This document shows positions 2,621 through 54,730 of a DNA stretch of 64,000 nucleotides, piece after piece. The notes below the pieces were generated by a model, which was not told the DNA's origin, searched no databases, and worked only from the letters and a program-made list of their open reading frames with translations. The stretch comes from Minisyncoccota bacterium (GTDB lineage: Bacteria > Patescibacteriota > Minisyncoccia > Phycocordibacterales > Phycocordibacteraceae), in NCBI GenBank assembly GCA_022842945.1, contig JALHOO010000002.1, positions 103,180 through 167,179 on the forward strand, given 5' to 3'. Each line of letters opens with the position of its first letter. Within the stretch, counting starts at the first letter, position 1. The position numbers were made by a program, and so were the translations under genes.

Positions 2621-2624
2621 AAGT

Positions 2625-17516: not shown

Positions 17517-17888
17517 TTCAGATGTACCTAAACATAAAACCACTTCAGAGGCAGGGACTCGTGGATTCCGAACTTACGTTTGGAAACCCACTAGTTTGGA
17601 GACCGTGGAGTTTCCCCCACGAGTGCCCACCTCTTAAGTGGTTTGGCTATCCTTTCGGATTCCCTGCCGTCTTGCGGTCTCCATGCAAGACATATTCGTA
17701 TGTATAGGTACATCATTAACTTACCATGATTCATCTAATCCTCCGTGTGCATAAACCATCACGAAATACCTACAGAAAAATGCAAGTCTAGGACATCATG
17801 CTGTGGGGGGATAGGCATGGGTTTGTCCACAGTTGTCCCCAATGCAAAAGACAGCCTTTTGAGCTGTCTTTTGCATCCTTCTCGCTAG

Positions 17889-17959
17889 TGCGGATAGGGA
17901 GAATCGAACTCCCGACTCGTCCTTGGCAAGGACGCGTTTTACCACTAAACCATATCCGC
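17889..17959 (-). tRNA. tRNA-Gly (anticodon GCC)
   Basis: Acceptor GCGGATA/TATCCGC, D-arm GTTT AGTGGTA AAAC, anticodon loop TTGCCAA, T-arm GGGAG TTCGATT CTCCC. Confidence 0.75.
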
Positions 17960-18003
17960 TACGGGAGGCATCATAGCACAGACTGCGCTGTACTATCCAG
18001 TGT

Positions 18004-19185: not shown

Positions 19186-19188
19186 GAG

Positions 19189-19261
19189 TGCGCCCGGAGG
19201 GAATCGAACCCCCGACCCTCTGTTCCGAAGACAGATGCTCTATCCCCTGAGCTACGGGCGC
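19189..19261 (-). tRNA. tRNA-Arg (anticodon TCG)
   Basis: GCGCCCG TAGCTCAGGGGATAGAGC A TCTGT CTTCGGA ACAGA GGGTC GGGGG TTCGATT CCCTC CGGGCGC A. Directly upstream of lysA. Confidence 0.75.
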
Positions 19262-27525: not shown

Positions 27526-28539
27526 CTACGAACCAAATGGGTTCTTTGCGCCACGCACCTCAAAGTGGAGGTGGTACCCGGTGGACTGGCCGGTATTTCC
27601 AACCGTACCGATGTTCTGCCCACGTGAGACGCTCTGACCTATAGAAACAGCGTCGGTACTCATGTGTGCGTACAGGGTCTGAACACCGTTGCCGTGATCA
27701 ATAACGACGTAGTTTCCGTATCCGCCGTTCCAGCCCCCAACCTTGGAGACAATAACGGTACCCGCTGCAGCGGCATTAACCGCAGAGCCCTGAGGAGCCG
27801 CAAGGTCTACACCGTTCCACCCGTGAATGCCCTGAGAAAGTCTTCCGGCAGGAGCGGGGTTTGCAAAGGAGCCTGAAAGGGAGCCGTCTGAGGTGTTTCC
27901 GGTTGCCTTAACGGCACCGAGAGATCCTCCGGTCTTAATCTTTGCCGTTGCTGCAGGTGTCTTTGCCTTTGCTTTAGCAGCTGGAGCACTTGCGAGCTCG
28001 CCTCCAGGGATGATAACGGTAGCGCCCTTTGTAAGAGCCTCGGACGCTCCAAGACCATTATAGGAAGCGATCTCGTCACTATCTGAGCCGTAGCGCTTCG
28101 CGAGAGTGCTCAACGTCTCGCCAGAAGCAACCGTGTGGCGAATACCAGACACCGGAAGGATAACGAGGGTCATGCCCGGACGAACGGTTCCCTTAGCTGG
28201 AAGGTTGTTGGCCCAAAGAATGGTGTTCATGGACACATCGAACATGTCCGCGATACCGGAAAGGGAATCGCCCTCGCGAACCGTGTAGGTAGAAATGCGG
28301 CCACTGCCACGATTCTGATCAATGTCTGCAATGGTGCCGTCAGGACCGGTATAGGCAATGAGTGCCGAGCCATCGGTGGTATTAATGCCTCCACGACCCT
28401 TTGCCGGGTTCGGGTCAGGGTTAATTGCAGCAGCAAGAAGGTCAATACTGCTGTCATGCAGCATTGGAGTAGCAGAACCCGCATCCGATGCGTTGGTTAC
28501 GGTAAATGGCCAGAATGCGCCAGCGGCGCGTGGCATCAA
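27526..28539 (-). CDS. LysM-domain M23-family peptidoglycan endopeptidase
   Basis: Two LysM repeats (GDSLSGIADMF..., GETLSTLAKRYG...). C-terminal M23 motifs HxxxD and GNTGQSTGYHLHFE. Confidence 0.8.
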   Translation of the reverse strand: MMPRAAGAFWPFTVTNASDAGSATPMLHDSSIDLLAAAINPDPNPAKGRGGINTTDGSALIAYTGPDGTIADIDQNRGSGRISTYTVREGDSLSGIADMFDVSMNTILWANNLPAKGTVRPGMTLVILPVSGIRHTVASGETLSTLAKRYGSDSDEIASYNGLGASEALTKGATVIIPGGELASAPAAKAKAKTPAATAKIKTGGSLGAVKATGNTSDGSLSGSFANPAPAGRLSQGIHGWNGVDLAAPQGSAVNAAAAGTVIVSKVGGWNGGYGNYVVIDHGNGVQTLYAHMSTDAVSIGQSVSRGQNIGTVGNTGQSTGYHLHFEVRGAKNPFGS

Positions 28540-31574: not shown

Positions 31575-31641
31575 TGCACACACCTTATATAGGTTCGTGA
31601 AGGGAGCGTGAGCCTGCGTGCTATTATTTTGGTACTGAAAT

Positions 31642-32640
31642 ATGGCTCATTCTACCCGCACACTCCGCATCGGCATCGCTTCATTAGTAGCTATCGTTAT
31701 GGTTGGGGGAACCTTCGCACTCACTGGTCCTGATCCTCTGTTTGGTCTTGGTCGCGTTGCTGAAGCGCAGTCTTCGGAAGAGCTCTTGCGTGAATATGCT
31801 GCTAAAGATACGGACTCTGACAGTCTCCCGGACTGGCAGGAGTCGCTCTATGGGACAGACCCAACAAACCCGGAGTCGTTCCAGGCAGGCATCAAGGACG
31901 GGGATGCGGTTGCACAGGGGCTCATTCAGCCGAAGGTTGCAGTACGCGAGGAAGGCGAGATGACGGATATCGAGACTATCCCAGGAACTACTGCGGCCCC
32001 GAACTCTCTCACAGACCGCTTTGCACAAACACTTCTCAAGCAGTACCTCCAGAACAGGGGAGAGACGCCGCCAACGAGCGCGGAGATTGTTGCGTTTGTT
32101 GAGGCGGGCATTCAGAACCTCGTTGCAGAAAGCGACTCATCCGCTCGCTATGCACTTGCTGACGTGCGGCTGTCTGGAGAGACAGGAACCATTGGACTCC
32201 AGTCCTACGCTGCACAGATGGAAAGTGCATTTGCACGCAACACGGTTGCCGCGAACCGGAACGAGCTTTCCTACTTCTCTGACGCACTTAGCGGAGACAC
32301 GGCTTCTCTCAAGAAGATTGGGGAGATTAGCCAAGCATACAAGAACATCGCGTCTGCACTCATCACAGTACCGGTTCCAAGCGAAGCCCGTCAGGCACAT
32401 CTTTCAATTGCTAACGCGCTCGTACACATGAGTGAGACAAGTGCAGACATGGCAGCCATGGAAACAGATCCGCTTCGCGCACTTATGGGCATCGGACTCT
32501 ACGAGAAGTACGCAACAGAGCTCGTTGCAGGATTCTCTAACCTGCACGGCGTATTTTCTGCACAACAAGTGTCTGTGCCACAGGGAACTGTTGGGTATCA
32601 AGTTATTAAAACAGCGGCAGATGCCGCCGCAAGCAATTAG
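31642..32640 (+). CDS. secreted hypothetical protein, first gene of the T4SS-like cluster
   Basis: Signal peptide/TM IGIASLVAIVMVGGTFALTG. No recognisable motif. Confidence 0.4.
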   Translation: MAHSTRTLRIGIASLVAIVMVGGTFALTGPDPLFGLGRVAEAQSSEELLREYAAKDTDSDSLPDWQESLYGTDPTNPESFQAGIKDGDAVAQGLIQPKVAVREEGEMTDIETIPGTTAAPNSLTDRFAQTLLKQYLQNRGETPPTSAEIVAFVEAGIQNLVAESDSSARYALADVRLSGETGTIGLQSYAAQMESAFARNTVAANRNELSYFSDALSGDTASLKKIGEISQAYKNIASALITVPVPSEARQAHLSIANALVHMSETSADMAAMETDPLRALMGIGLYEKYATELVAGFSNLHGVFSAQQVSVPQGTVGYQVIKTAADAAASN

Positions 32641-32643
32641 CCT

Positions 32644-34068
32644 ATGAACCGCACTTCACATACCCCCCACGCAAAGAAGTTCGCCGCAGGTGCACTTATG
32701 TTTGTGTGTTTGGTTGGTGTTTCAATTCCGCACAAGGCTGAGGCTCAATTTACTGACGCACTTAACCTCGTCCAGAACACTATTCAGGCAGTGTTCAGTT
32801 CTGGAGAGAATGTTAAGGAGTATGTGTTCGATGCGCTCGCATGGCAGGTTGCGAACATGGCCATTGAGTCTATTACAAAGAGCACCGTTAACTGGATTAA
32901 CTCCGGCTTCCAGGGATCTCCTGCATTCGTTACAGATCTGAACGAGAACCTTCGAGGGGTGGGGGATGCGGTTGCCGCCCGCTTCTTTGACGAGCTCTCT
33001 GCACAGACCATTGCTGATACTCCATTCCAGGACAAGGTTCTCGACAGCGTTCGTCTCGCATACTACCTCCGCACCAGTCCTGAATCTTTCTACACACGCA
33101 ATCCGTACACCTTGAATCAGGTTAGTGCGAACGATCGTGCATTCCTTCAAGGAGACTTCAACCAGGGAGGCTTCAATGCCTGGTTCGCAACCGTGATGAA
33201 TCCGCAGAACAATCCGTACGGCGCGCAGATGCTTGCGAACGAAGCACTTGAGAACGCAGTTGCGGGCGCAACAGGTAACCGCCTTGAGGAGCTTTCATGG
33301 AACCGTGGATTCCTTTCATGGAGAGGGGATTGTGCAGTATCAGACGAGACGGACACCATATCACTCACCGGAGCAGACCCGTGTGTGGAGTACAACATCG
33401 ACACGCCAGGGTCCGTTATCATGGAGCAGCTCAACAGCCAGCTTGGTGTTGGTGTGGAGCGTCTTGTCTCTGCTGACGAGTTCAACGAGATCATCGGTGC
33501 ACTCTTGAACCAGCTCGCAAGCCAGGTGCTTGGCGGAGGCAGTGGGGGACTACGCGGTGTGTCGCGTCCTTCAACCGGAGGCGGAGGTTCGTTCCTTGAT
33601 ACAGCGTCCGGTTCTTCTACGGGAAGCGGTGCGGCTATTAGCCGAACATTCTCTTCAACTATAACGAACCAGATTGCACGCATCGATGCATACCGTGCTT
33701 CGTGGGAGAAGATTCGTACTGCAGCAGAGGCAGCACGGCAGCAGTGTGCGAATAACAGCGCGGCGCAGGATGTACTTAACCGCGCAGCTGTTGCTCTAAC
33801 GAAGGCCGCGAATGCGCGGGCAGCACTTCAGGCGATTGAAACCAAGCTTGCTGAGAGCGCGGCGCAGGGAGGAGACAGAACACTGGATCTCCTTGATATC
33901 TCGAACGAGTACAACGAACTCACCGCCTCCGGCGTTCTTCCATCTGCAGAGGAGATTGCAGAGGCACAGAACGAGTCACAGGATACGGGAGACACAGAAC
34001 CAGGTTCGCTATATAGCCAGATGAAGCGTGCATCGTCTGGAAGTTGTAGCGCTAACTCGGGCAACTAG
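32644..34068 (+). CDS. secreted hypothetical protein with Gly-rich segment and C-terminal coiled coil
   Basis: Signal peptide FAAGALMFVCLVGVSIPHKAEA. Starts one codon after the upstream stop, in the same frame. Confidence 0.4.
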   Translation: MNRTSHTPHAKKFAAGALMFVCLVGVSIPHKAEAQFTDALNLVQNTIQAVFSSGENVKEYVFDALAWQVANMAIESITKSTVNWINSGFQGSPAFVTDLNENLRGVGDAVAARFFDELSAQTIADTPFQDKVLDSVRLAYYLRTSPESFYTRNPYTLNQVSANDRAFLQGDFNQGGFNAWFATVMNPQNNPYGAQMLANEALENAVAGATGNRLEELSWNRGFLSWRGDCAVSDETDTISLTGADPCVEYNIDTPGSVIMEQLNSQLGVGVERLVSADEFNEIIGALLNQLASQVLGGGSGGLRGVSRPSTGGGGSFLDTASGSSTGSGAAISRTFSSTITNQIARIDAYRASWEKIRTAAEAARQQCANNSAAQDVLNRAAVALTKAANARAALQAIETKLAESAAQGGDRTLDLLDISNEYNELTASGVLPSAEEIAEAQNESQDTGDTEPGSLYSQMKRASSGSCSANSGN

Positions 34069-34070
34069 AT

Positions 34071-36674
34071 ATGCAGAAGCTCCTACGAGCGTCACTTCTT
34101 GTAGCGACTCTGTCGGTGCTTTTGTTTGTGAGTGGGCATGGCGCTGTCAGTGCGCAGACCCCACCTCCTGCTCCTGACCCCACACCCACACTTGAAGATA
34201 AAGGGCAGGCCGGAGCGTACGACCAAAGTGCTGTTGCGAGACTGCGGGATGCTTGTTTCGCGGCTAATGGTGGTGATCGGATTGGGTGTGCTGTTGAAAA
34301 CAGCCCTGCAGGCGGAAGTACTTCGTGTGAAGCCGTTGGCTTGTTGCCGCCAAGAATCAGGTGCGAGGCTAAGTTCCCTGATGGCAGCAGGATCATCTCT
34401 CAACAAGGAATATCCAACTCCTGGGTAAACAGTTATTACGGCTCACCCGAAGACGATGATCCGCTGGTACGCGACCCAGGACTAGGGGATGACGTAGGTG
34501 ACGAAGAGGATGTTGCAGCCGTTACAAATGTTGGCAGGTCTTGTACGGAAGGGGATGTTGTTAGTTGTCTCCGAAATCTGCCTGGGATGCTCTTTACTGG
34601 AATCGCGTTTCTTTTTCTTACGCTCTCCGGGTTTGTTCTGGGACTTGCGGGCACCGTCTTTAACTGGGTTGTTATACGAACCGTATTCCAATTCGGAACA
34701 TACTTTGGCACCAACGAAGGCATGCTCATAGCGTGGGGAGTTATGCGAGATGTTGCAAACATTGGTCTTCTGTTCGGGTTCATTCTCATGGGGGTTCTTC
34801 TCATACTGAATGTTGAAGGCGGCGGAGGGCACGGCCATGGCGGAGGGATGAGTGCAAAGAAGGCGATTCCTCGCTTGATTATCTTTGCTGTTCTTCTTAA
34901 CTTCAGTCTCTTTGCTTCTCAACTTGTTATCGATGTAGCAAACGCATTCAGCTCTAGCTTTGCAACACTCGCAGGAGAATCTTGTTCGACAAATACTTCG
35001 ACCGGAACAAATGCTGACAATAGTGCGCAAGACAACGATGCCTGCGCAAACATTGGTATTGCGGGACAGGTACTTAAGGTAACAGGCCTAACGGCATTGT
35101 GGGACACAGAGGCTCTTGATATAGAGACGGGAATGAAGAATCTTGTTGATCGACCGTACTCCTACGCTGTGTCGCTCATCATGCTTTCCATATTTGTGCT
35201 CATAACCGCAATGGTGCTTCTTGCTGGTGCAATTATGCTCATCATTCGTGTAGTTATTCTGTCATTGCTCATGGTTACCTCGCCAGTTGGATTTGCTGGT
35301 ATGGCGATACCAAAGCTTCAAGGTATAGCTACGATGTGGTGGAGCAAGCTCATGTCACAAGCATTCTTTGCGCCGGTCTACCTTCTCCTCATATTCATCA
35401 GCATCAAGCTGACCGAGGGCCTAACAGAAGGGAACGCGACTCTTGCGAACGCACTTATTGCTAATGAGGGCAATTCAGTAGCGGGAAACATGCAGGTGGT
35501 TATGGTGTTCCTGATTGTTATTGGATTCATGATCGGCTCGCTTATTGCTGCTACGAAGATGGGAGCAATGGGCGCAAGCTTCGCAACAAATGCCGCGAGC
35601 GCTCTTGCGTTCGGAGCAGTCACTCGTGGTGCAAACTTTACGACCGGAGGGGCAGCGTACGGACTAAGACGCATCCAGCAGAAAACCGGTTTTGGGGGAC
35701 GTGTAGGTGAAGTGATGGTAAATCGTGGCCTGCGTCCGTTAGAGAAAGCGAATCTTGACCTGCGACGCATTCCAGGAATGGCCGGAGGTCTTGGTGCTGC
35801 AGGCATATCAGCAGGAGCTAAGGCAGCGGAACATGCGACATATGCCGATATTGCACATCAGTTCTCTGACATAAAAGCAGGCAAGGAAGGACAGAAGCTT
35901 CACGAAGAATACGATCAGGAGAAGAAGAATATGATGCTTGAAGACAATGCGCATCATGGCGGAATGACTTCAGATGACAAGGCACACCTTGCTTCCCTAT
36001 CTACGAAGGAACTTGAGCAGCTTCATGGAGTCAAGGAGGGCGTACAGCAGCTTGCAGAGAATTTGAGTCCTGAACAGTTTGAGAACCTAATGAAGAGCGA
36101 CAAGCTTACAGATATCGAGAAGGGGACCCTTAAGTCTGGTCGCTTCTCGTCCTTGAATGAGGCGGCTGCATCTGGCCGCGGAGCAGACGTGAAGAATCTA
36201 ATGAAGACCATGAGCAAGAAGGATCTTGAGAACGCGCCGAATGGCGTACTCCTACAGCCGCTTGTTCTCGAGAATCTTTCTGATCAGCAGCGTGAGGACC
36301 TTGTTAAGAGCGACAAGCGAACACCAGCCGAAAAGGCTGCCATAAAGGCTTCGTACGCAAACGAGGTTCTGAAAACAGTCTTTACAGGGGCAGGTGGTGG
36401 TGCAGCAGGGGCGGCAGCAGTCATCGCACACCCAAAGTATGGTTCTGTGTCTACAGCTCAGTTCGCTGAACTTGGTGTTGATATACTTCAGCAGTCATCT
36501 ATTGCCCAGAACATTCCGGTATCGGTACTTGAAAAGATTGTTAAGGACAATAAGTTGAGTCCTGCGGAGATGAAGCTTGTTGGAGCACAGATGGAGGCAG
36601 CCGTCGCAGCGGGCACAGCCTCAGCTGGAGTAAGAGGATATATGGCAAGTCCTAAGGGAGATTTCTGGAGGTAA
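34071..36674 (+). CDS. VirB6/TrbL-like polytopic membrane protein with long C-terminal repeat-containing extension
   Basis: Signal peptide, a large extracytoplasmic N-domain, then about 6 TM helices (...SLIMLSIFVLITAMVLLAGAIMLIIRVVILSLLMVTSPVGFAGMAIP...). C-terminal hydrophilic region has repeated ENL..Q.EDLVKSDK.T..EK units. Confidence 0.5.
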   Translation: MQKLLRASLLVATLSVLLFVSGHGAVSAQTPPPAPDPTPTLEDKGQAGAYDQSAVARLRDACFAANGGDRIGCAVENSPAGGSTSCEAVGLLPPRIRCEAKFPDGSRIISQQGISNSWVNSYYGSPEDDDPLVRDPGLGDDVGDEEDVAAVTNVGRSCTEGDVVSCLRNLPGMLFTGIAFLFLTLSGFVLGLAGTVFNWVVIRTVFQFGTYFGTNEGMLIAWGVMRDVANIGLLFGFILMGVLLILNVEGGGGHGHGGGMSAKKAIPRLIIFAVLLNFSLFASQLVIDVANAFSSSFATLAGESCSTNTSTGTNADNSAQDNDACANIGIAGQVLKVTGLTALWDTEALDIETGMKNLVDRPYSYAVSLIMLSIFVLITAMVLLAGAIMLIIRVVILSLLMVTSPVGFAGMAIPKLQGIATMWWSKLMSQAFFAPVYLLLIFISIKLTEGLTEGNATLANALIANEGNSVAGNMQVVMVFLIVIGFMIGSLIAATKMGAMGASFATNAASALAFGAVTRGANFTTGGAAYGLRRIQQKTGFGGRVGEVMVNRGLRPLEKANLDLRRIPGMAGGLGAAGISAGAKAAEHATYADIAHQFSDIKAGKEGQKLHEEYDQEKKNMMLEDNAHHGGMTSDDKAHLASLSTKELEQLHGVKEGVQQLAENLSPEQFENLMKSDKLTDIEKGTLKSGRFSSLNEAAASGRGADVKNLMKTMSKKDLENAPNGVLLQPLVLENLSDQQREDLVKSDKRTPAEKAAIKASYANEVLKTVFTGAGGGAAGAAAVIAHPKYGSVSTAQFAELGVDILQQSSIAQNIPVSVLEKIVKDNKLSPAEMKLVGAQMEAAVAAGTASAGVRGYMASPKGDFWR

Positions 36675-36679
36675 TATCT

Positions 36680-37402
36680 ATGGCACGATTCACACAAGAA
36701 CAACTTTTGGAAGCATATCGAAGGGCGCCAGAGGCGATTCAGGATACCTATGGCAGCGAACTAATGGCTGGTGTAATTAACGACATTAAGACGAGATTTC
36801 GCTTACACGTAGATGTGGTTGGCAGTATTGAGAGGGAGGTGGGATATCTCATGCTGGGACTGATTAGCCCTGCGGAGTTCTTTGGTAGCCTTATGCTTTC
36901 AGGGACAGACGAGCAGTCCGCTAGAGGAATTATGGAGGAGGTGAACCAGCGAATCTTTATTCCGCTCAAGAGGAGAATGTCAGGAGTGACGCAGGCTCCT
37001 GTAATGGAAGGGACGTATGCGAACACTCCCGAGAGACCTGTGCGAGAGCCTGCAGTACCAACGCCGGCACTTGATTATGAAGCCCCCGCAACCCTTCCAG
37101 GATCACCAGTGGCGGCCCCAATGCCTTTGGCAGTAAGCACGCCTCCTTCTGTGGTGGTTTCTGAGTCCTCACCAATCTCTATGGAGGCCCCGAAAGTGAC
37201 ACCCGCCGCCGAAACAACGGGTTCGCCTGCCCCTGCAGGCAATGTTGCGAACAATACTTATACTCCACCGACTTTTATCGCATCTCCTGCAGCACCCAGA
37301 GCGAGCGCTCCCGTACAGCCGGTTTCAGTGCCAGTCCAACCAAAGCCAGAAAGTCCCCTTAAGAAAGAAGGTTGGGCAGATCCATATCGTGAACCGATAT
37401 AA
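36680..37402 (+). CDS. hypothetical Pro-rich protein
   Basis: 240 aa, C-terminal Pro/Ala/Val-rich low-complexity half. Confidence 0.35.
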   Translation: MARFTQEQLLEAYRRAPEAIQDTYGSELMAGVINDIKTRFRLHVDVVGSIEREVGYLMLGLISPAEFFGSLMLSGTDEQSARGIMEEVNQRIFIPLKRRMSGVTQAPVMEGTYANTPERPVREPAVPTPALDYEAPATLPGSPVAAPMPLAVSTPPSVVVSESSPISMEAPKVTPAAETTGSPAPAGNVANNTYTPPTFIASPAAPRASAPVQPVSVPVQPKPESPLKKEGWADPYREPI

Positions 37403-37446
37403 AATCACTAGTTTGAAACGCGCTTAGGTCCTGCTACTATTTTAGT

Positions 37447-37920
37447 ATGTCTGAGAACCCTCCCCGAACCTTACCTAACGAACCCGGTGAACAGATGGTG
37501 GAGGCGAACAATCCAGAATCTTCAGGAGAGAACAGTGGCGATTCGCAAGAAACAGGCCCGCAGCCAGGAACATCTGTCGCAGAAACCATCCTCGCTGATG
37601 AGCGCGAGGCCATAGCGCAGGGTCGCCGCGCTGAGACCCTAGAGAATCTTAGGAGGCACGCGGATGCTTCGCCGCGAGCGGAGGAAACTAATCCTGGTAG
37701 TACCACCCATACAACAAGGGCACCCGCTGCTGTTCATAAGCAGGGCGGGCGTATTGGTGCTTCGGTACTAGGCACCGGCAAGAATATTTTTGCACTCTTT
37801 GGCCTGTTCGGCTCATGGATCTTAATGGCTCTCAAAGGCGCAGGGGCCATGGCAGGCAAAGGAGGCGGCGGAGGTGGTGGTCACGCCAAGAAGGATGATC
37901 ACGGGGGCGGACATCATTAG
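37447..37920 (+). CDS. hypothetical protein with one TM helix and a Gly/His-rich tail
   Basis: C-terminus ...GKGGGGGGGHAKKDDHGGGHH. Confidence 0.3.
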   Translation: MSENPPRTLPNEPGEQMVEANNPESSGENSGDSQETGPQPGTSVAETILADEREAIAQGRRAETLENLRRHADASPRAEETNPGSTTHTTRAPAAVHKQGGRIGASVLGTGKNIFALFGLFGSWILMALKGAGAMAGKGGGGGGGHAKKDDHGGGHH

Positions 37921-37984
37921 CGTCCACAGTACGAACGTGAGGAATTTAGCAGTCGGCGAGAACCGACTGCTATACTTATAGGTA

Positions 37985-38389
37985 ATGGAGTACCAAGTAC
38001 CGCAGTTCATCGAAGTAGAGGATAAGATTTTCGGACCCTTCACGCTGAAGCAGTTCATCTATGTAGCCGGCGGGGTAGGGCTCTGCGCTATTCTTGTTCT
38101 GTATTTCCCGCTCATCATTGGCCTCATCCTCGCGCTTCCAGTAGCTGCGTTCACAGCAGCTCTCGCGTTCTACAAGATAAACAACAAGCCGTTCGTTGAA
38201 ATCATGGAAGCAGCCTTTAACTACTACATCGGGGACCGCCTGTATCTCTGGAAGAAGGAGAAGAACCAAGTAGATGCACCGGTTGCTGTGAAGCCTGCGG
38301 ACCCAGAGAAGCTCGGCCTAACCCAGAGCAAACTCAAAGACCTCGCCTGGTCTCTTGATATCAAGGATCAAAACAACACCCCTTCCTAA
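37985..38389 (+). CDS. VirB3/PrgI-like small membrane protein
   Basis: 134 aa; MEYQVPQFIEVEDKIFGPFTLKQFIYVAGGVGLCAILVLYFP... followed by two TM helices. Immediately precedes the VirB4-like ORFs in the same frame. Confidence 0.4.
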   Translation: MEYQVPQFIEVEDKIFGPFTLKQFIYVAGGVGLCAILVLYFPLIIGLILALPVAAFTAALAFYKINNKPFVEIMEAAFNYYIGDRLYLWKKEKNQVDAPVAVKPADPEKLGLTQSKLKDLAWSLDIKDQNNTPS

Positions 38390-38392
38390 TCT

Positions 38393-39025
38393 ATGGCTCC
38401 TACTAAGACTACGCAGTCATTTGTGCCGGTAAAAGAAGTACGCAACGGTGTTGTGGTACTTAAGAACGACGGGTACCGAGGGATTCTCATGTGCTCCTCT
38501 ATTAACTTCGCCTTGAAAGGGGAGGACGAGCAGCGCGCTATTATCGGCGGATTCCAGAGCCTTCTTAATACGCTCGATTTCTCTATACAGATCGTGGTGC
38601 ACTCTCGAAAAACTGATATTCGTCCATACCTCGCACTCCTTGAGACGCGCATGCAGGAACAGTCTACGGAGCTCATGCGTCTCCAGCTGCGCGAGTACAT
38701 CGCCTTCATCAGGAACTTCATCGACTCGAGCGACATTATGACGAAGCTCTTCTACGTCGTTGTCCCATATGCTCCTGGCGCCGGAGGTATTGTATCGAGC
38801 ACACCATCCTTCCTTGGGGGAACGAAGCGCCCCGCAACAGACGGCACGAGCGATTCATTCGAAGAGAACCGCGTACAGCTAGAGCAGCGCATGGCACTTG
38901 TGGTGCAGGGCTTGGCTGCAAGCGGGGTGCGTGCCGTGCCGCTTGGCACCGAGGAGGTTATCGAGCTTCTATACCGCTCATTCAACCTCTCTGAGCTTGA
39001 GAACCCTATTCATCTTTCTGCATAA
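38393..39025 (+). CDS. VirB4-family ATPase, N-terminal domain fragment encoded as a separate ORF
   Basis: 210 aa; ...PVKEVRNGVVVLKNDGYRGILMCSSINFALKGEDEQRAIIGGFQSLLNTLDFSIQIVV... resembles VirB4/TraC N-terminal region. Ends TAA; the next ORF starts 3 nt later in the same frame. Confidence 0.5.
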   Translation: MAPTKTTQSFVPVKEVRNGVVVLKNDGYRGILMCSSINFALKGEDEQRAIIGGFQSLLNTLDFSIQIVVHSRKTDIRPYLALLETRMQEQSTELMRLQLREYIAFIRNFIDSSDIMTKLFYVVVPYAPGAGGIVSSTPSFLGGTKRPATDGTSDSFEENRVQLEQRMALVVQGLAASGVRAVPLGTEEVIELLYRSFNLSELENPIHLSA

Positions 39026-39028
39026 TCT

Positions 39029-40852
39029 ATGGCACTCCTCGACTTCCTCGGAAAGAATAAGGGCGACGAAACACCAAGCATGGCACCAGTCCTTCCAAAG
39101 GACATCTATGCAGAAGGGGAGCTGAAGCTCGCTGACGCTATCGCGCCGGCGGCCCTCAAGGTTGGAGCCCGCGAGCTTGAGCTAGGGGAGAAGGTATCTC
39201 GCTCGTTCTACACCATTTCCTACCCACGCTTCCTCGTTGATAGCTGGTTCACACCAATCATCAACCTCGACAAGGTATTCGATGTTTCTATTTTCATTCA
39301 TCCCGTTGAAACCGGTTCAGCACTCCGCGGCTTCCAGAAAAAGGTTGCTGAGATTGAGAGTCAGATCTCTGACAGGGAAGAGAAGGGGTTAGTGCGCGAC
39401 CCGATGCTCGATACCGCGTACCGCGACCTTGAGCAGCTGCGTGACCAGCTTCAGCAGGCAGAAGAGCACATCTTTGAAGTGGGGCTCTACATAACACTCT
39501 ACGGAAACTCGAAGGAGGACCTCGACAAGATCGAAGGGGACGTGCGCGGCATCCTCGACGCCAAGCTCGTATATACGAAGCCAGCACTCTTCCAGCAGGA
39601 GCAGGGATTCCGCTCGACACTTCCGCTCGCGACCGACGAGCTCCAGGTTACAAGCAAGCTCAACTCCTCTCCGCTCTCTTCCATATTCCCGTTCGTGTCC
39701 TTCGACCTCACGAGTGACCGCGGCATTCTCTACGGTATCAACCGCCACAACGCCTCGTTGATTCTTTTCGACCGCTTCTCCCTTGAGAACTACAACTCGG
39801 TTGTGTTCGCAAAGTCTGGTTCCGGAAAGTCCTATGCCGTTAAACTCGAGATTCTTCGTTCCTTGATGTTCGGCACTGACGTTATTGTTATCGACCCTGA
39901 GCGCGAGTACGAGAACCTGGCATCTGCCACAGGAGGACGTACCTTCAACATCTCGCTCTCGTCCGAGCACCACATCAATCCGTTCGACTTGCCGCCGGTT
40001 AAGGAAGACGAGGAGCCGTCTGACATCCTTCGCTCGAACATCATTAATCTCGTGGGTCTATTCCGTCTCATGCTCGGAGGACTTTCGCCTGAGGAGGACG
40101 CGATTATCGATCGCGCAATAACGGAGACCTACGCCCTTAAGGACATCACCGGGGACAGCGACTTCACTGGCATCGAACCGCCGATTCTCTCGGACTTCGA
40201 GAACGTGCTTTCCGGCATGGAGGGCTCAGAATCCCTTGTTATACGCCTTTCCAAGTACACGCACGGTACCTGGGCTGGGTTCATTAACCAGCCGACGAAC
40301 ATCGACATAAACAAGCAGTTCATCGTGTTCTCTGTGCGCGACATGGAGGACGAGCTGAAGCCTATTGCGATGTACATCATCACGCACTACATCTGGAACG
40401 CGGTCCGCCACGAACTCAAGAAACGCCTTCTCATAATCGACGAGGCGTGGTGGATGATGAAGTCAGACGACACCGCGTCCTTCCTCTACAGCCTTGCTAA
40501 GCGCGGCCGTAAATACTATCTGGGTGTTGCAACCGTCACCCAAGACGTTGAGGACTTCCTCCGCTCTCCATACGGCCGTCCTATCCTTACGAACTCGTCC
40601 ATGCAGTTGCTCTTGAAGCAGTCTCCAACAACCATCAACGTCCTCAAGGAGACCTTTAACCTTACAGACGAGGAGAAATTCCTTCTTCTTGAGTCTGGAG
40701 TGGGGGAGGGTCTCTTCTTCGCAGGCCTTAAGCACGTGGCTATTAAGATTGTTGCGTCCTACACCGAGGACCAGATCATAACCTCAGACCCGAGCCAGTT
40801 GCTCCAGATCAAGCAAGAGAAGGCACGAAACGACGCGGGGCTCGCGGCCTAG
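39029..40852 (+). CDS. VirB4/TrbE/CagE-family type IV secretion ATPase, motor domain
   Basis: Walker A VVFAKSGSGKSYAV, Walker B RLLIIDEAWWMM; 607 aa. Together with the previous ORF it approximates a full-length VirB4 of about 820 aa. Confidence 0.8.
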   Translation: MALLDFLGKNKGDETPSMAPVLPKDIYAEGELKLADAIAPAALKVGARELELGEKVSRSFYTISYPRFLVDSWFTPIINLDKVFDVSIFIHPVETGSALRGFQKKVAEIESQISDREEKGLVRDPMLDTAYRDLEQLRDQLQQAEEHIFEVGLYITLYGNSKEDLDKIEGDVRGILDAKLVYTKPALFQQEQGFRSTLPLATDELQVTSKLNSSPLSSIFPFVSFDLTSDRGILYGINRHNASLILFDRFSLENYNSVVFAKSGSGKSYAVKLEILRSLMFGTDVIVIDPEREYENLASATGGRTFNISLSSEHHINPFDLPPVKEDEEPSDILRSNIINLVGLFRLMLGGLSPEEDAIIDRAITETYALKDITGDSDFTGIEPPILSDFENVLSGMEGSESLVIRLSKYTHGTWAGFINQPTNIDINKQFIVFSVRDMEDELKPIAMYIITHYIWNAVRHELKKRLLIIDEAWWMMKSDDTASFLYSLAKRGRKYYLGVATVTQDVEDFLRSPYGRPILTNSSMQLLLKQSPTTINVLKETFNLTDEEKFLLLESGVGEGLFFAGLKHVAIKIVASYTEDQIITSDPSQLLQIKQEKARNDAGLAA

Positions 40853-40855
40853 CGT

Positions 40856-41362
40856 ATGGCAGCACCTCACAAGATAGGGAACGTAACGGCTGGTTTCATG
40901 GTCGCAATCGCCTTGCTTGTGGACGGTGTCCAGGCACTTCTAACGCTCTCTGTGTTCCTGCTTCCGTTATCTGTTCTTGCCACGTTCTTTTCTATAACCA
41001 TGTTCTTTTTATGGTTTGGCATCCTGGGGGTGAAGTACACCGGAAACGGGGGAGGGAAGAAACTCTTGATTATGCTCGCTACAACCGTAGCTGAAATAGC
41101 GCCGGTTATAAACGCACTTCCTGCTACAACTGCGGGGGTCATTGGGGTGATCGTTCAGACTCGCATTGAGGACGCTCGAGCTTCTGTAGAGGGGAATGTA
41201 ACCCCAAACACCGCGATGGCATACGCTCGCCAAAGACGAATGCAGGCTGCCCGCGTCAACCGCCAGGACTCAGCGCGAGAGGGTAGGGAAGAGGTTCAAA
41301 ATGCTCGCCACTCAGAACCTGCTAACGACAATTCGGGAGAGTCGTACCGCAGCGCGGCATAA
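40856..41362 (+). CDS. hypothetical membrane protein (3 TM helices)
   Basis: 168 aa. Same reading frame as the three preceding ORFs, TAG-CGT-ATG junction. Confidence 0.35.
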   Translation: MAAPHKIGNVTAGFMVAIALLVDGVQALLTLSVFLLPLSVLATFFSITMFFLWFGILGVKYTGNGGGKKLLIMLATTVAEIAPVINALPATTAGVIGVIVQTRIEDARASVEGNVTPNTAMAYARQRRMQAARVNRQDSAREGREEVQNARHSEPANDNSGESYRSAA

Positions 41363-41409
41363 CATTACCCCCGTCCTCTAAAGAGGCTCTGGGGTATTCG
41401 GTATATACT

Positions 41410-42399
41410 GTGCGTATGATACGCGCGCTACTTCTAGCGATTCTTCTTATCGGCACAAGCATTCCCGCAGCGCTTGCTCAGGGACTTCCCGGAACAGACC
41501 CGCTTACACTCGTCGTTTCTCCGCAGTATCCGCGACCATACCAAACCGTGAGTATTGCACCGAGAAGCTCACTTCTCGACCTCTCAGCGAGCACGGTGCG
41601 GGTTTCGGTAGACGGGGAACGGGTATATGAGGGAAGTGGTACTCAAGCAACTAATGTTCGTGCAGGAGCTCTAGGAGAGCGCACCACGGTTTCAGTGTCT
41701 GTTACGGATCCAGACGGCCGTGTCTATACAAAGACGCAGGTACTTCGTCCCGCAGAAGTGTCGTTGATACTGGAACCCGCCTCAACAGCACACCCTTTCT
41801 ATAGGGGTGGGGGGTTGGTTGCCTCAGAGGGCAGGGTGCGTCTTATCGCTGTGCCTGATTTGAGAAGCGCTCCGGGCACACGTCTCCCCGCATCGTCCTT
41901 GGTATACACCTGGCGTCTTGGAGACCGTATCCTTACGGACTCTTCCGGTATTGGGCGCTCTACACTAACGGCAGAAGCACCCGTCCGCTATCGCAATGCA
42001 AACATAAGCGTAACCGTAACGAGCCCAGACAGCTCTTTGGTAGGGGAGGCGAGAACGGTTGTGTCAGCGGTTGATCCGACTGCTCGTATGTATCGCAACG
42101 ACCCTCTCCTTGGACCAAACTTTGATGTAGCGCTTAGTGATCGGTTCTCTATGCCAGATACTGAGGCAACCTTCCGTGCAGTTGGATACTTCTTCGCAAC
42201 ACCTCCAACATTCGCGTGGACCGTTAACAACACAACCAACGGCACCGACAAGGACCTCACCGTCCGCGCTACCGGCAACGGACAGGGGGCTGCTCGTCTC
42301 GGCGTTACCGTAACGGAGCCTGCAAGTAGGCGCTCTGCTGAGAGTCGCGTAACCGTAGACTTCGGTGCGTCCACTGGCTTTGGATTCTTTGGCCTATAA
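41410..42399 (+). CDS. secreted hypothetical protein
   Basis: Signal peptide MRMIRALLLAILLIGTSIPAALAQG. Beta-rich sequence with repeated VTVT-type segments. Confidence 0.4.
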   Translation: MRMIRALLLAILLIGTSIPAALAQGLPGTDPLTLVVSPQYPRPYQTVSIAPRSSLLDLSASTVRVSVDGERVYEGSGTQATNVRAGALGERTTVSVSVTDPDGRVYTKTQVLRPAEVSLILEPASTAHPFYRGGGLVASEGRVRLIAVPDLRSAPGTRLPASSLVYTWRLGDRILTDSSGIGRSTLTAEAPVRYRNANISVTVTSPDSSLVGEARTVVSAVDPTARMYRNDPLLGPNFDVALSDRFSMPDTEATFRAVGYFFATPPTFAWTVNNTTNGTDKDLTVRATGNGQGAARLGVTVTEPASRRSAESRVTVDFGASTGFGFFGL

Positions 42400-42403
42400 C
42401 ACT

Positions 42404-43243
42404 ATGAAATACCTTTCTTTTCTCGTACTTTTCTTCGGACTCCCACTCATGGCACTCGCACAGAGCACCGACATTGGGAGTGGGTTCGTACCTCTTACGA
42501 ATATTCCAATCCTTGCTCAGACCGGAAACTCATTCAGTCTCGATCAGTTCCTGAACGGTCTCTACAGAATCTGTATTGGTATAGCGGCAGTGCTCGCGGT
42601 GCTCCAGATCATGCGCGCGGGCATCATGTACATGGGAGGAGACAGCGTTACGGAGAAGAAGGAGGCCAAGAACCTCATTGCTATGGCTATTGGGGGACTT
42701 ATTTTGGTGCTTTCGCCAGTTGTTGTGTTCTCGGTTATTAATCCAGAGATTCTTACACTGAAGATTAATAACATCGAGGAACTTGCTCCGGAAGAACCAG
42801 CGACACCAACACCACCCATCACACTTCCGAGCACCGAACAGGGTGTGTGCAGCATCACGTATGTTGAAAGGCGTGAGGCACCGAACTGTAGTGCACTTGG
42901 CTCCGATTGGGAGACAGCGAGTCTTTCGTGCTGTGTGTCTTTCACGGGAGGCTTCTGTTGTGGCCGCAAGCCGCAAACTCCTTCGACGCCAGACACCACT
43001 GCGGGCTTCAGATATCGAATTGCCGTACAAGACACTGATTCAAGAAACCCTGATTTTCTATATCAGAGTCGTTCCTGCGTTCGTTACGAAGAGGGAACGG
43101 AGGCGAATCAAATAGCGTGCGTTGGTGCACTTGAAGCAGAGAAGATTCAGCTTCAAGGAAAACAGTATCAAGTTGTGAAGGAGTGTGTTGGACAGGAAGC
43201 TACTACGCACGCATATACAAACCTACCGACCTGTACACCTTAG
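42404..43243 (+). CDS. VirB2/TrbC-like pilin with long Cys-rich C-terminal extension
   Basis: Signal peptide, then two hydrophobic segments (LYRICIGIAAVLAVLQIMRAGIMYMGG...LIAMAIGGLILVLSPVVVFSVI) as in VirB2. A C-terminal tail of about 150 aa has 13 Cys. Track start 42365 trimmed to MKYLSFLVL. Confidence 0.4.
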   Translation: MKYLSFLVLFFGLPLMALAQSTDIGSGFVPLTNIPILAQTGNSFSLDQFLNGLYRICIGIAAVLAVLQIMRAGIMYMGGDSVTEKKEAKNLIAMAIGGLILVLSPVVVFSVINPEILTLKINNIEELAPEEPATPTPPITLPSTEQGVCSITYVERREAPNCSALGSDWETASLSCCVSFTGGFCCGRKPQTPSTPDTTAGFRYRIAVQDTDSRNPDFLYQSRSCVRYEEGTEANQIACVGALEAEKIQLQGKQYQVVKECVGQEATTHAYTNLPTCTP

Positions 43244-43246
43244 TTT

Positions 43247-44470
43247 ATGAACCGCCGCATCCTCGTTATCGTTGCAAGTATCATCGTCCTCATAGGGCTT
43301 CTTGTGGGTGGGTACTATCTGTTCTTCGCGAACGGAGCCTCTCTCTCTGTAGGGTTGCCTGGAGACCCATTCGGTTCAAGCGGAGACCGTGATCAAACAG
43401 GGCTTCTAGGACCAGACGGTCAACCTATTCAAGGAGCCGGAACGGTGGTGGCACCGCGTCTCATCCGTATCTCTGATGCTCCTGTGGCAAAGGGCGCTAT
43501 TGCACTCTACATCCCGCCAGTTCTTCCGGTTGGCACTTCGACCGATCCTGAGATTCCTGCTGACACTGAGGTTCGCTTCATCGAGCGTCAGAGCGGGAAC
43601 ATCTACGCATTCCGCGTTCATGATCGCGTGCTCACACGCGTAAGCAACCGCACTCTTCCAGGTATTCAGGAAGCAACATGGAGCTCAGACGGGTCTCGTG
43701 CCTTTGCGCGCTATCTCACCCGTGCTGCAGACGGCACTGAGCACATTGATACCTATGCGCTTCCTGCAGACGGTGGGGAAGGGTACTTCTTAGAGCAGGA
43801 CCTTGAGCAGGTTGCGGTGCAGGGTTCAACAACCGTCTTCTCACTCCTTCCAAACTCAACCGGCTCTATAGGAAGCCTTTCAAATACAGACGGCACAAAC
43901 GTCAGTACACTCTTCACGTCCGCTCTCTCTCGCCTGCATGCCGGCTTCTCAGGCAACGACCTCGTACTTGCCACTAAGGCCTCAAGCGGACTCGATGGCT
44001 ATGCATTCCTCGCATCAAGGACAACAGGTGCGTTCACGCGCATTCTAGGACCCCTCAGAGGCCTCGCTGTACTTCCGAACACCGAAGGCACGTCTGTTCT
44101 TTACAGTTATGCTGATGCAGGACGTGTGTACCTACAGGTCCTCGACCTCTCAACCAGAAACTCAACCGCACTTCCGCTCGTTACACTCGCTGAAAAGTGT
44201 ACCTGGGCACCTGGAGGACGTGCCGTCTACTGCGGCGTACCAACCGCGCTCGCAGGAAACGTACCAGACGAGTGGTACCAGGGCGCAAAGACATTCTCTG
44301 ATCGCATTTGGCGCATTGATCTTGATACACGCCTCGCAACGCTAATCGTTGACCCGGGGACCGTTGCAGGTGTTGCTATTGATGCAGTTGCTCTTACGGT
44401 TGACCCAGTAGGGGACACTCTAGTGTTCACGAATAAGAAAGATGGCACACTCTGGGTATACGACCTCTAG
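43247..44470 (+). CDS. membrane-anchored hypothetical protein, possible beta-propeller-like ectodomain
   Basis: N-terminal TM ILVIVASIIVLIGLLVGGYYLFF. Repeated ...DG.....Y.. segments (TWSSDGSRAFARY, WAPGGRAVYCG, DGTLWVYDL). Confidence 0.35.
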   Translation: MNRRILVIVASIIVLIGLLVGGYYLFFANGASLSVGLPGDPFGSSGDRDQTGLLGPDGQPIQGAGTVVAPRLIRISDAPVAKGAIALYIPPVLPVGTSTDPEIPADTEVRFIERQSGNIYAFRVHDRVLTRVSNRTLPGIQEATWSSDGSRAFARYLTRAADGTEHIDTYALPADGGEGYFLEQDLEQVAVQGSTTVFSLLPNSTGSIGSLSNTDGTNVSTLFTSALSRLHAGFSGNDLVLATKASSGLDGYAFLASRTTGAFTRILGPLRGLAVLPNTEGTSVLYSYADAGRVYLQVLDLSTRNSTALPLVTLAEKCTWAPGGRAVYCGVPTALAGNVPDEWYQGAKTFSDRIWRIDLDTRLATLIVDPGTVAGVAIDAVALTVDPVGDTLVFTNKKDGTLWVYDL

Positions 44471-44486
44471 AGAACAGGAAATAAGA

Positions 44487-44515
44487 AAAGAGCCCGTATA
44501 TACGGGCTCTTTTCT
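44487..44515. terminator. bidirectional terminator containing GCCCGTATATACGGGC
   Basis: aaaagagcccgtatatacgggctcttttc between convergent genes. Same hairpin core as at 21504-21519. Confidence 0.55.
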
Positions 44516-44527
44516 TATATGCAGTGC

Positions 44528-45853: not shown

Positions 45854-47203
45854 ATGAATCGGTTAGACGCACGAGAACTCTGGGAATACACCCTTACGCA
45901 AGTGGAACTCTCCATTTCACCCGCTAATTTCAATACCTGGTTCCGTGATAGTTCTATCGTAAAGATAGAGGATGGGATCGTATATATAGGCGTTCCAAGC
46001 CAATTCTTTCGGGACTGGTACCTGAAGAAGTTCAACATGCTTCTTCTTAAGATTATTCGCGGTGTCTCCCACGAGTACCGCAATATCGAATACATGATTG
46101 TGAAGGACGATCGTAGACGTCCTAAGGAAGTACGTCGCCAGCAGCAAGCAACAGTTGAGATGCCGCTTGATGAATTCTACATCAATAAGAGTGACGGCCT
46201 AAACCCACGCTATACGTTTGAGACGTTCGTGGTTGGCTCGTTCAATGAGCTGGCACACACCGCGGCGCAGGCGGCATTGAAGCGCCCTGGCATCATGTAC
46301 AACCCACTCTTCATCTATGGAGACACCGGAAGAGGGAAGACCCACCTTATCCAGGCGATAGGGAATCAATTCAAGAAGCTGTATCCCGGCCGTAAGGTGT
46401 TCTATTTAACTGCGGAAACCTTTGCGCAGGACTACATGAACTCTATTCAGGCGGGAAACACGAACCGCTTCAAGGAGAAGTACCGCCAGTACGATCTCCT
46501 TATCATGGACGACATTCAGTTCTTCTCGAAGAAGGATAAGACGCAGGAAGAGCTGTTCCATCTCTTTAACGCCCTCTACGACAACAACAAACAGATCCTC
46601 TTCTCTTCTGATAGGGCACCGGCTGCTATTCCAGACATTGCAGATAGGCTTCGTGGCCGCTTCGCCGCCGGTATGTCTATTGATATTGGCGAACCGGACA
46701 CTGAGAGCCGTATGGCTATTGTGCGCAAGAAGGCTGCCGCAAACGGCGTCATGCTCTCAGACGAAGTTATCGAACACATCGCAACCTCTATATCAGGCTC
46801 TATCCGTGAGCTTGAAGGTGTTATAAACAGCGTTGTTTGCCATACACAGGTTAAGGGCGTTCCACCAGACCTTGCTGAAGTGCGCCACTCTCTTCGTTCC
46901 TTCGCACGCCCTCAGAAGACGGTCTCGGTTAAGCATGTGGTCTCTAAAGTGGCTGAGTTCTACGGTATTGATGAGGAAAGTATCTATGAGAAGACGCGTA
47001 GAAGGGAGGTGGTGCGCCCGCGTCAGGTAATCATGTATATCCTTCGAGAGGATTTCAGCGTCTCGTATCCAACCATTGGCTCAAAGCTCGGAGGCCGTGA
47101 CCACACAACCGTTATCCATTCCTGTGAGAAGGTTAAGAGGGAGGTGCTTGTCGACCCGGATCTCGCAAAGGAGATTCAGGACATTAGAAGCCTGTTGGTA
47201 TAG
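45854..47203 (+). CDS. dnaA: chromosomal replication initiator protein DnaA
   Basis: AAA+ Walker A GDTGRGKTHLIQAIGN, and the C-terminal DNA-binding domain with the DnaA signature region. Confidence 0.95.
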   Translation: MNRLDARELWEYTLTQVELSISPANFNTWFRDSSIVKIEDGIVYIGVPSQFFRDWYLKKFNMLLLKIIRGVSHEYRNIEYMIVKDDRRRPKEVRRQQQATVEMPLDEFYINKSDGLNPRYTFETFVVGSFNELAHTAAQAALKRPGIMYNPLFIYGDTGRGKTHLIQAIGNQFKKLYPGRKVFYLTAETFAQDYMNSIQAGNTNRFKEKYRQYDLLIMDDIQFFSKKDKTQEELFHLFNALYDNNKQILFSSDRAPAAIPDIADRLRGRFAAGMSIDIGEPDTESRMAIVRKKAAANGVMLSDEVIEHIATSISGSIRELEGVINSVVCHTQVKGVPPDLAEVRHSLRSFARPQKTVSVKHVVSKVAEFYGIDEESIYEKTRRREVVRPRQVIMYILREDFSVSYPTIGSKLGGRDHTTVIHSCEKVKREVLVDPDLAKEIQDIRSLLV

Positions 47204-54074: not shown

Positions 54075-54730
54075 GTTTTGAAGAAACACCATTCGATGCG
54101 TATGGCGGAGCTGATAAAGAATCAGTATCGAGTACTCTAACGCCAGAGAGTATCGAAGAGCATGCACAGACGCAGGAAACAATAATGAATGAGAGGGAGG
54201 CGGACCTTCTGCGAACGCTCGACACCATACAGCCTGAGACGCCAGATCAGGAGAGGATACTCGAAGCGCTCAAAGAGAGAACGCTCGCGTTGTCTGGACC
54301 CCGTCTTGATTTGAAGGTGGCAGCACAGACCGCCGCACTGTCTGTTGCGCTCGAAGGCATTCTCTCAGCAAATAGTATTGCGCCTGAAGGTGAGACATAT
54401 ACTGCACGGCTTCTCGCAAACAATCCTGAACTAACCGAGATGCTCATGCAGCGAATTCTTGGTGTTGCAGAAGGGGCACCGAAGTCGGTACTTATTGATA
54501 GTGCAAAAGAGGTACTAGCAGAAATGGAAGGATCAGACTCGAAGCTCTTTAAGGGACTTGCGCTACGTACTGCTGAGCGCGCTGCGCGAGCACTTATTAG
54601 TGCCAGCACGCTTGGTATAGGAACGGTTGTGTACGATTCTGCCAAAGACCTCTATATAAGCTTGCGCGAGAGAAGCGTGTCTCGCACGAAGCAGAGACTT
54701 ACGTCTTCAACTGCTATTCCGGCAGTCTAG
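54071..54730 (+). CDS. hypothetical protein
   Basis: 219 aa, acidic and helical. Overlaps the previous ORF by 4 nt (ATGA). Convergent with the second PilB-like gene. Confidence 0.35.
   Translation: MSFEETPFDAYGGADKESVSSTLTPESIEEHAQTQETIMNEREADLLRTLDTIQPETPDQERILEALKERTLALSGPRLDLKVAAQTAALSVALEGILSANSIAPEGETYTARLLANNPELTEMLMQRILGVAEGAPKSVLIDSAKEVLAEMEGSDSKLFKGLALRTAERAARALISASTLGIGTVVYDSAKDLYISLRERSVSRTKQRLTSSTAIPAV

Follow-up and report, generated by a model that had tools for sequence, protein, structure and literature searches.

In a 64-kb stretch of the genome of a Minisyncoccota bacterium (GenBank assembly GCA_022842945.1, contig JALHOO010000002.1), referred to here as the window and its open reading frames (ORFs) as window proteins, a cluster of twelve genes at positions 31642–44470 (g1–g12) is most probably the resident type IV secretion system (T4SS), passed on by vertical descent, of an ultrasmall Paceibacteria-class Patescibacterium: a representative of the ‘Patescibacteria T4SS’ that derives from monoderm MPF-FATA conjugation machinery, is no longer a conjugation module, and has filament assembly as its proposed core activity. 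The parts that can be recognised in the cluster (VirB2, VirB3, VirB4, VirB6 and possibly a VirB5-like protein) correspond to the subset sufficient for pilus biogenesis in well-studied VirB systems, with the substrate-recruitment subset (VirD4, relaxase) missing, and a filament-assembly machine is therefore favoured. The original prediction for this DNA, made from the sequence without database searches, had likewise proposed a T4SS-derived apparatus of the kind suggested for episymbiotic candidate phyla radiation bacteria rather than a conjugative module, a proposal now supported by the T4SS families identified, by the non-mobile context beside oriC, and by the match to published systems. This support does not extend to the preference, in the original prediction, for protein secretion over roles such as import or a pilus alone.

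Locus organisation and conservation beside the replication origin

The interval 31642–44470 contains exactly twelve plus-strand ORFs, co-oriented and nearly abutting as first described, with nine junction gaps of 2–5 nt and three of 44–64 nt. The cluster is flanked by uvrD/pcrA and ksgA on one side and by yidC, dnaA and dnaN on the other, and adjoins the replication origin. A VirB4 scan of species-representative genomes yielded 553 relatives, from which 80 loci, 73–96% identical, were kept for comparison; all derive from Patescibacteria metagenome-assembled genomes (labelled Paceibacterota, Kaiserbacteria, Parcubacteria or similar) or from metagenome bins without classification. The gene order uvrD–ksgA–g1 to g12–yidC–dnaA–dnaN is held in most of those with flanks long enough to be assessed, spanning dozens of species, so that the synteny comparison with Patescibacteria T4SS loci that had been put forward as a check on the prediction returned the same arrangement repeatedly. 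VirB4 exceeds DnaA (45854–47203) in conservation in 55 of the 56 syntenic loci, with a median identity of 75% versus 56% in loci that were chosen by VirB4 similarity, suggesting that VirB4 is under a constraint rarely so strong in a secretion ATPase.

Its fixed place beside oriC, its synteny across species, the lack of tRNA genes and direct repeats, and its uniform GC content mark the locus as non-mobile. No tRNA lies within 12 kb of the cluster, no direct repeats were found flanking it, and its GC content is uniform with the remainder of the window. The sole tyrosine recombinase of the window, a XerC/D-like protein, is encoded 8 kb upstream among housekeeping genes, with no integrase at the cluster borders. 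Pfam scans of large ORFs across the 64-kb window detected no VirD4/TcpA, relaxase or VirB11, in agreement with their reported absence from the cluster and its surroundings, and a search of the window for a relaxase/VirD4 pair or for integrase boundaries, either of which would be expected of an ordinary integrative conjugative element (ICE), lent such an element no support.

Variation among the relatives indicates that the cluster is divisible. In one sublineage (loci L014 (5292–6814), L013, L019, L023–L026, L030, L032, L033 and L039), g1–g3 are missing upstream of the PrgI–TrsD–VirB4 genes, which points to two separable modules: A (g1–g5, including the VirB6-like gene) and B (g6–g12). In their place that sublineage, for example L014, has tpiA, pgk and recJ upstream of PrgI, along with genes for RNase H, for ComEC (with DUF4131 and Competence domains) and for an M50 peptidase, and the adjacency of ComEC is of interest for the DNA-import hypothesis considered below.

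A split VirB4 ATPase and its PrgI partner

Four families assigned to the cluster (five proteins, two of them forming one split ATPase) carry the T4SS assignment; a candidate fifth component, g2, is listed with them.

g2, 32644–34068, plus strand: secreted all-alpha protein of 474 residues (signal, secondary-structure prediction)
g3, 34071–36674, plus strand: VirB6/TrbL-like polytopic membrane protein of 867 residues (orthologue matches, topology)
g6, 37985–38389, plus strand: PrgI/VirB3 homologue of 134 residues (Pfam PrgI, 1.3e-9, 38.9 bits, cut-off 27)
g7, 38393–39025, plus strand: TrsD-like stand-alone VirB4 N-terminal domain of 210 residues (NCBIfam matches)
g8, 39029–40852, plus strand: VirB4 ATPase of the monoderm CD1110/MPF-FATA type, 607 residues (NCBIfam, Pfam, motifs)
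g11, 42404–43243, plus strand: VirB2-like pilin of 279 residues, with signal peptide, two-helix hairpin and C-terminal tail

The VirB4-family ATPase and the VirB3/PrgI-like protein, both named in the original prediction, are identified by profile matches above curated thresholds. g8 scores 371.7 bits against the NCBIfam VirB4-like CD1110 family (cut-off 325) and 1.3e-24 against the Pfam TraG P-loop domain, with an intact Walker A motif (AKSGSGKS at residue 261) and Walker B motif (LLIIDE at residue 467); the nearest solved structure is the C-terminal domain of Thermoanaerobacter VirB4 (PDB accession: 4ag5; 1.4e-44). By inference from its sequence, g8 would fall within the Patescibacteria VirB4 clade. 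g6, found in 75 of the 80 loci directly 5' of g7, is the predicted membrane anchor for VirB4. Together with the TrsD-like, pilin and, by orthology, VirB6/TrbL assignments, these matches extend the T4SS families of the cluster well beyond VirB4.

The protein g7, to which no function had been given in the original prediction, matches VirB4 N-terminal models and TrsD: VirB4_plasma at positions 102–233 (3.5e-8), the CD1110 VirB4 family at positions 2–101 (1.9e-5), and TrsD (0.0025). As g8 aligns to the CD1110 model from position 183 onwards and g7 matches the N-terminal parts, g7 and g8 together represent a split VirB4. The two genes share a reading frame in the window, separated by a TAA stop and one codon, and the possibilities that this in-frame stop is a read-through site or a sequencing artefact were considered and rejected, as spacing and frame differ among relatives, where the gap is mostly 1–6 nt; the split is therefore real, and 79 of the 80 loci have g7 as an ORF of its own. 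Translational coupling of g7 and g8 is probable.

A single pilin with a cysteine-rich C-terminal tail

The mechanical ORF of g11 begins at a GTG codon at 42365; the start is probably the ATG at 42404, which opens a signal peptide (MKYLSF...) and with which the overlap with g10 disappears. Identification of g11 as a VirB2-like pilin, proposed earlier and upheld here, draws on its orthologues, 40 of 46 of which match the T4SS_pilin family (best 3e-11) and 18 TrbC/VirB2. The accompanying description of a C-terminal extension with 13 cysteines requires correction, as the protein contains 11 cysteines, 10 of them within a C-terminal tail of ∼160 residues. Close relatives share the cysteine skeleton C...C...CC...G.CCG...C...C...C, with cysteine counts that are mostly even, while tail length ranges from 8 to 267 residues across the clade; the tail of g11 is a putative conserved, disulfide-type, Cys-rich region. 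One pilin gene per locus is the rule (64 of 66 loci). The small membrane proteins g5 and g9 were considered as further pilins and rejected, the pilin hidden Markov model matching g11 alone in the window.

A nearly invariant I-N-P-x-x-L motif lies where the second pilin helix ends (residues ∼112–117 of the ATG-start protein), directly before the variable Cys-rich tail, and might function as a hinge or be processed; the C-terminal processing undergone by RP4 TrbC offers a comparison.

The VirB6-like protein and a VirB5-like candidate

The topology of g3, compatible with the VirB6/TrbL type, comprises a signal-like N-terminal segment, an N-terminal extracytoplasmic region, six hydrophobic segments between residues 170 and 500, and a hydrophilic C-terminal tail of ∼370 residues. 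The repeat-bearing tail of the original prediction is confirmed, with ENLSxxQxExLxKSDKxTxxEK occurring at ∼663–690 and ∼734–760 (score 72, versus a shuffle maximum of 39). The VirB6 identity that accompanied it comes by way of the orthologues rather than from matches of the window protein itself: among 45 syntenic orthologues, nine match TrbL/VirB6 (Pfam accession: PF04610; best 1.9e-7) and one matches TrbL_4. Residues W222, R226, N230, N277–S279, N291 and R393 are invariant within the membrane domain.

Directly upstream of g3, the secreted all-alpha protein g2 is a candidate VirB5/TraI-like component, as suggested by the sequences of its homologues, which carry a short DUF4141 N-terminal motif (up to 33.7 bits, cut-off 30); in Bacteroides, this motif marks a protein of conjugative transposons whose gene lies between traG and traJ. 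The gene virB5 is likewise positioned directly upstream of virB6 in the Agrobacterium virB operon. g2 itself has no Pfam VirB5 match and no sequence match in the PDB. Sequence-profile searches of the PDB with g1, g2, g3 and g10 recovered no T4SS structures, including none of VirB6 for g3, returning coiled-coil noise, an Ig-like match (g10) and a Ca-binding motif (g1).

Remaining cluster genes and neighbouring features

The other six genes of the cluster, and the hairpin at its 3' end, are as follows.

g1, 31642–32640, plus strand: protein of 332 residues with N-terminal signal or anchor (hydrophobic segment 7–30)
g4, 36680–37402, plus strand: protein of 240 residues with no transmembrane (TM) segment and a Pro/Ala-rich C-terminal half (no Pfam/NCBIfam family match)
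g5, 37447–37920, plus strand: protein of 157 residues with a low-complexity N-terminal part, one C-terminal TM helix (114–132) and a Gly/His-rich end
g9, 40856–41362, plus strand: small membrane protein of 168 residues with about three TM helices (hydrophobic segments)
g10, 41410–42399, plus strand: secreted protein of 329 residues with tandem immunoglobulin (Ig)-like beta-sandwich domains (signal peptide, orthologue profile)
g12, 43247–44470, plus strand: protein of 407 residues with an N-terminal TM helix and an extracytoplasmic beta-propeller of TolB-like fold (AlphaFold2 model)
Hairpin, 44481–44518, no strand assigned: 17-bp stem with U-tracts between the convergent g12 and yidC (terminator scan)

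Two of these proteins are widespread among the relatives. g10 is present in 79 of 80 loci, its orthologue profile matching the Ig domains of T4 Hoc (2e-4), with a weak Pfam Cadherin-like match. The AlphaFold2 model of g12 (pLDDT 88.2, pTM 0.81) matches oligogalacturonate lyase and TolB propellers in Foldseek searches (5e-10 to 5e-8); the gene is found in 65 of 80 loci, and weak PD40 matches occur in four of its orthologues.

g1 is a putative accessory protein of module A, detected by tblastn in 27 of the 80 loci, with the Ca-binding type motif DxDxDGLPDWxExLYGTDPxNP and a further conserved domain; it has no Pfam or NCBIfam match, and its orthologue profile finds in the PDB only a Bap-like Ca-binding segment (2.4e-4). 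No family matches were obtained for g4, g5 or g9. Weak homologues of g4 are detectable by tblastn in 17 of 80 loci, and g5, without a tblastn match in any of the 80, is accordingly the least secure member of the cluster. An ORF of 115–430 residues with 2–4 TM segments occupies the position of g9 in 41 of the 63 loci having both VirB4 and g10, with sequence similarity to g9 detectable by tblastn in only 11 of the 80 loci.

A terminator-like hairpin at 31605–31622 lies 3' of the upstream gene ksgA, and the hairpin at 44481–44518 is likely a bidirectional terminator that ends the cluster. A sigma-70 promoter scan gave matches at or below shuffled expectation and was uninformative.

Elsewhere in the window, type IV pilus (T4P) genes at 4707–8215 and 54727–56400, both on the minus strand, encode a platform protein of the PilC (T2SSF) type along with two PilB-like ATPases that contain MshEN domains, in line with the known enrichment of T4P in Patescibacteria. 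These two T2SSE ATPases were considered as VirB11 and rejected, as they carry MshEN domains, lie beside or near T4P genes, and are PilB-like. Two large ORFs are without any Pfam match (539 residues, 24772–26391, plus strand; 523 residues, 1169–2740, minus strand); they are not P-loop proteins, which rules them out as hidden coupling proteins. On the opposite strand, two genes away on the upstream side of the cluster, lies a gene for an M23 peptidase with two LysM domains (27526–28539, minus strand); M23/LysM proteins were counted among the VirB1-like matches near virB4 in Paceibacteria in a 2025 survey (PMC12102498). An IS1595-family transposase (16310–17188) is located within a tRNA gene cluster at 15734–19261, where the tRNA-Trp call at 17427–17516 is unusually long at 90 nt, possibly reflecting an insertion, an intron or a mis-call.

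Comparison with known systems

The closest counterparts are other Patescibacteria T4SSs. Quiñonero-Coronel et al. 2025 (Microb Genom 11:001409, PMC12102498) surveyed 3,035 Patescibacteria genomes and describe VirB4 in 2,417 of them, mostly as one clade nested in MPF-FATA, with TrsD, PrgI/VirB3, VirB6 and VirB2-like genes near virB4; in Paceibacteria, virB4 itself is a close neighbour of dnaA, dnaN and ksgA. Only 103 of the 3,035 genomes had a relaxase, whereas 2,918 had VirD4 homologues, rarely near virB4. The window locus matches the core of the Paceibacteria arrangement of that survey in its VirB4 and neighbouring TrsD-like gene, its PrgI/VirB3 protein and its VirB2-like pilin, with g3 as the putative VirB6, and shares with it the lack of a relaxase and of a nearby type IV coupling protein (T4CP), the dnaA/dnaN/ksgA neighbourhood and a probable MPF-FATA affiliation; no difference in kind emerges from the comparison (PMC12102498). 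Features of the window that go beyond the parts of that survey compared here are the Cys-rich tail on a single pilin, the all-alpha protein with a DUF4141 motif encoded upstream of the VirB6-like gene, the beta-propeller with its TM anchor, the secreted Ig-like protein, and the separable g1–g5 and g6–g12 modules.

In Southlakia epibionticum, of the class Saccharimonadia, the T4SS is essential, resembles Gram-positive conjugative systems, and has pilins without coupling or relaxase proteins (Wang et al. 2023, Cell 186:4803, PMC10633639). The T4SS of strain ML1 (SEML1_0006–0019, PMC10633639) and the window locus are both chromosomal, with pilin(s) and without a recognisable coupling protein or relaxase. 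The two differ in that S. epibionticum has an array of six divergent pilins, against one in the window, and in that its virB4 is followed immediately by peptidase and lysozyme genes that have no counterpart at this position of the window locus. The S. epibionticum T4SS genes are essential for epibiotic growth. A 2025 review singles out the T4SSs of Patescibacteria from all those of monoderms for being essential and for the pili they may form (PMC12857230), and a 2024 perspective regards the role of the Patescibacteria T4SS as completely unknown (PMC11665869).

Relationships to conjugative MPF-FATA systems (Clostridioides difficile CTn2 of the CD1110 type, pCF10 Prg, pGO1 Trs) are evident in the VirB4 of the window, which exceeds the CD1110 cut-off, in the common PrgI-type VirB3, in the separate TrsD-like VirB4 N-terminal domain shared with pGO1, and in the lack of an outer-membrane core complex on either side. 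The systems of CTn2, pCF10 and pGO1 reside on plasmids or ICEs and include a relaxase and T4CP alongside VirB8-like proteins and a hydrolase of the VirB1 type, but no VirB2 pilins; at the window locus, in contrast, a pilin is present, components for DNA processing are missing, and the chromosomal location is fixed. Like the window locus, the DNA-uptake system ComB of Helicobacter pylori and the toxin exporter Ptl of Bordetella have no VirD4-type coupling protein; they show that T4SS cores are able to import DNA or to export Sec-delivered proteins. Both nevertheless belong to diderms, are built around VirB7/9/10 core complexes and are dispensable for growth, and their likeness to the window locus is at the level of shared VirB families.

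Proposed mechanism and alternative explanations

In model VirB systems, VirB4 docked on VirB3 and VirB6 pulls pilin out of the membrane and hands it on to a stalk formed by VirB6 and VirB5. By analogy, the gene content of the cluster suggests that VirB4 would drive the assembly of a filament or tube of the VirB2 type across the monoderm envelope, in which the disulfide-rich C-terminal domain of the pilin would be displayed outside the cell, g2 may act as a VirB5-like partner of g3, and the Ig-like g10 and the propeller g12 would be envelope or host-contact accessories, with the filament serving attachment to, and exchange with, a host cell. A bolder extension is possible, if on the doubtful side: a monoderm with a complete diderm-type pilus core (VirB2, VirB5-like g2, VirB6, VirB3 and split VirB4) and a disulfide-knotted pilin display domain on its filament might possess a novel host-piercing or docking tube, acting as a feeding conduit of Paceibacteria.

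Several points weigh against filament assembly and against parts of the T4SS assignment on which it draws. The pilus mechanism is read from gene content and, to our knowledge, no filament has yet been seen for any Patescibacteria T4SS. The window pilin scores 25.3 bits against T4SS_pilin, just below the cut-off of 26.6, and g3 itself has no Pfam or NCBIfam match, remaining below curated thresholds. No VirB8-like or VirB1-like gene was recognised within the cluster. The membership of g1, g4, g5, g9, g10 and g12 in the apparatus is weakly indicated by position and co-conservation, since the housekeeping neighbours are syntenic too. A T4CP may also be encoded elsewhere in the genome, given the occurrence of VirD4 homologues in 2,918 of 3,035 genomes, mostly far from virB4, in the 2025 survey (PMC12102498).

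It is somewhat unlikely that the system is instead an import machine by which the host or the environment would supply DNA, nucleotides or other macromolecules, in the manner of ComB or archaeal Ced, so feeding an organism unable to make nucleotides. T4CP, relaxase and VirB11 are lacking in the window as they are in ComB, ComEC and recJ stand immediately upstream of PrgI–TrsD–VirB4 in the related sublineage, and import is favoured as a hypothesis in published reviews and in the survey (PMC11665869, PMC12102498). It is supported by no experiment, however, and deletion of comEC in S. epibionticum abolishes competence but not viability, whereas the T4SS is essential (PMC12857230, PMC11665869), from which it follows that the essentiality of the T4SS does not operate through ComEC-dependent DNA uptake. 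The match of g8 to the archaeal DNA-import ATPase CedB (4.9e-9), which might also be taken to favour import, is partial, confined to the P-loop region and far below the model cut-off. An effector translocator, exporting proteins into or onto the host bacterium with some of g1, g2, g4 and g10 as its substrates rather than its parts, is unlikely. Several unannotated secreted proteins are encoded in the cluster, protein export was suggested as an alternative to DNA transfer by Wang et al. (PMC10633639), and protein exporters without a T4CP are known in Bordetella Ptl and Brucella VirB (PMC12857230, PMC12102498); yet the candidate substrates have Sec-type signal peptides and are conserved at fixed positions, which fits structural parts better, searches of Pfam, NCBIfam and PDB profiles recognised no toxin or enzyme domain in g1, g2, g4 or g10, and there is no T4CP nearby to recruit cytoplasmic substrates.

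Conjugation or mobilisation, with a relaxase and coupling protein encoded elsewhere in the genome or with the locus as a decayed ICE, is highly improbable. The VirB4, PrgI and TrsD families do derive from monoderm conjugative elements, the absence of relaxase and T4CP established here covers 64 kb of the genome only, and VirD4 homologues are located away from virB4 in most Patescibacteria genomes of the survey (PMC12102498). Set against this are the identical oriC-side position across dozens of species, with VirB4 constrained more than DnaA; borders devoid of integrase, tRNA and repeats; and twelve ORFs that are all intact, with the ATPase motifs of VirB4 preserved. In the survey, relaxases occur in just 103 of 3,035 genomes, and the distant t4cp of S. 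epibionticum is dispensable whereas its T4SS genes are essential (PMC12102498). Synteny, borders and conservation effectively exclude an ICE or ICE remnant.

Implications

The system itself, its composition, the missing relaxase and the position near dnaA have already been published for this phylum (2023–2025), and the question of its role has been raised by that work; the details contributed by the window are incremental and consist of the tail on the pilin, a possible VirB5 counterpart, the propeller and the division into two modules. As a clean Paceibacteria example, the window supplies leads for structural work in the single pilin with a conserved, putatively extracellular Cys-rich tail, the VirB5-like candidate paired with the VirB6-like g3, the confidently modelled membrane-anchored beta-propeller, and the stronger constraint on VirB4 than on DnaA. 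The Patescibacteria T4SS is an apparatus that is essential in the one species tested, is kept beside the origin in genomes of <1 Mb, and is the suspected link by which Patescibacteria epibionts exploit their hosts.

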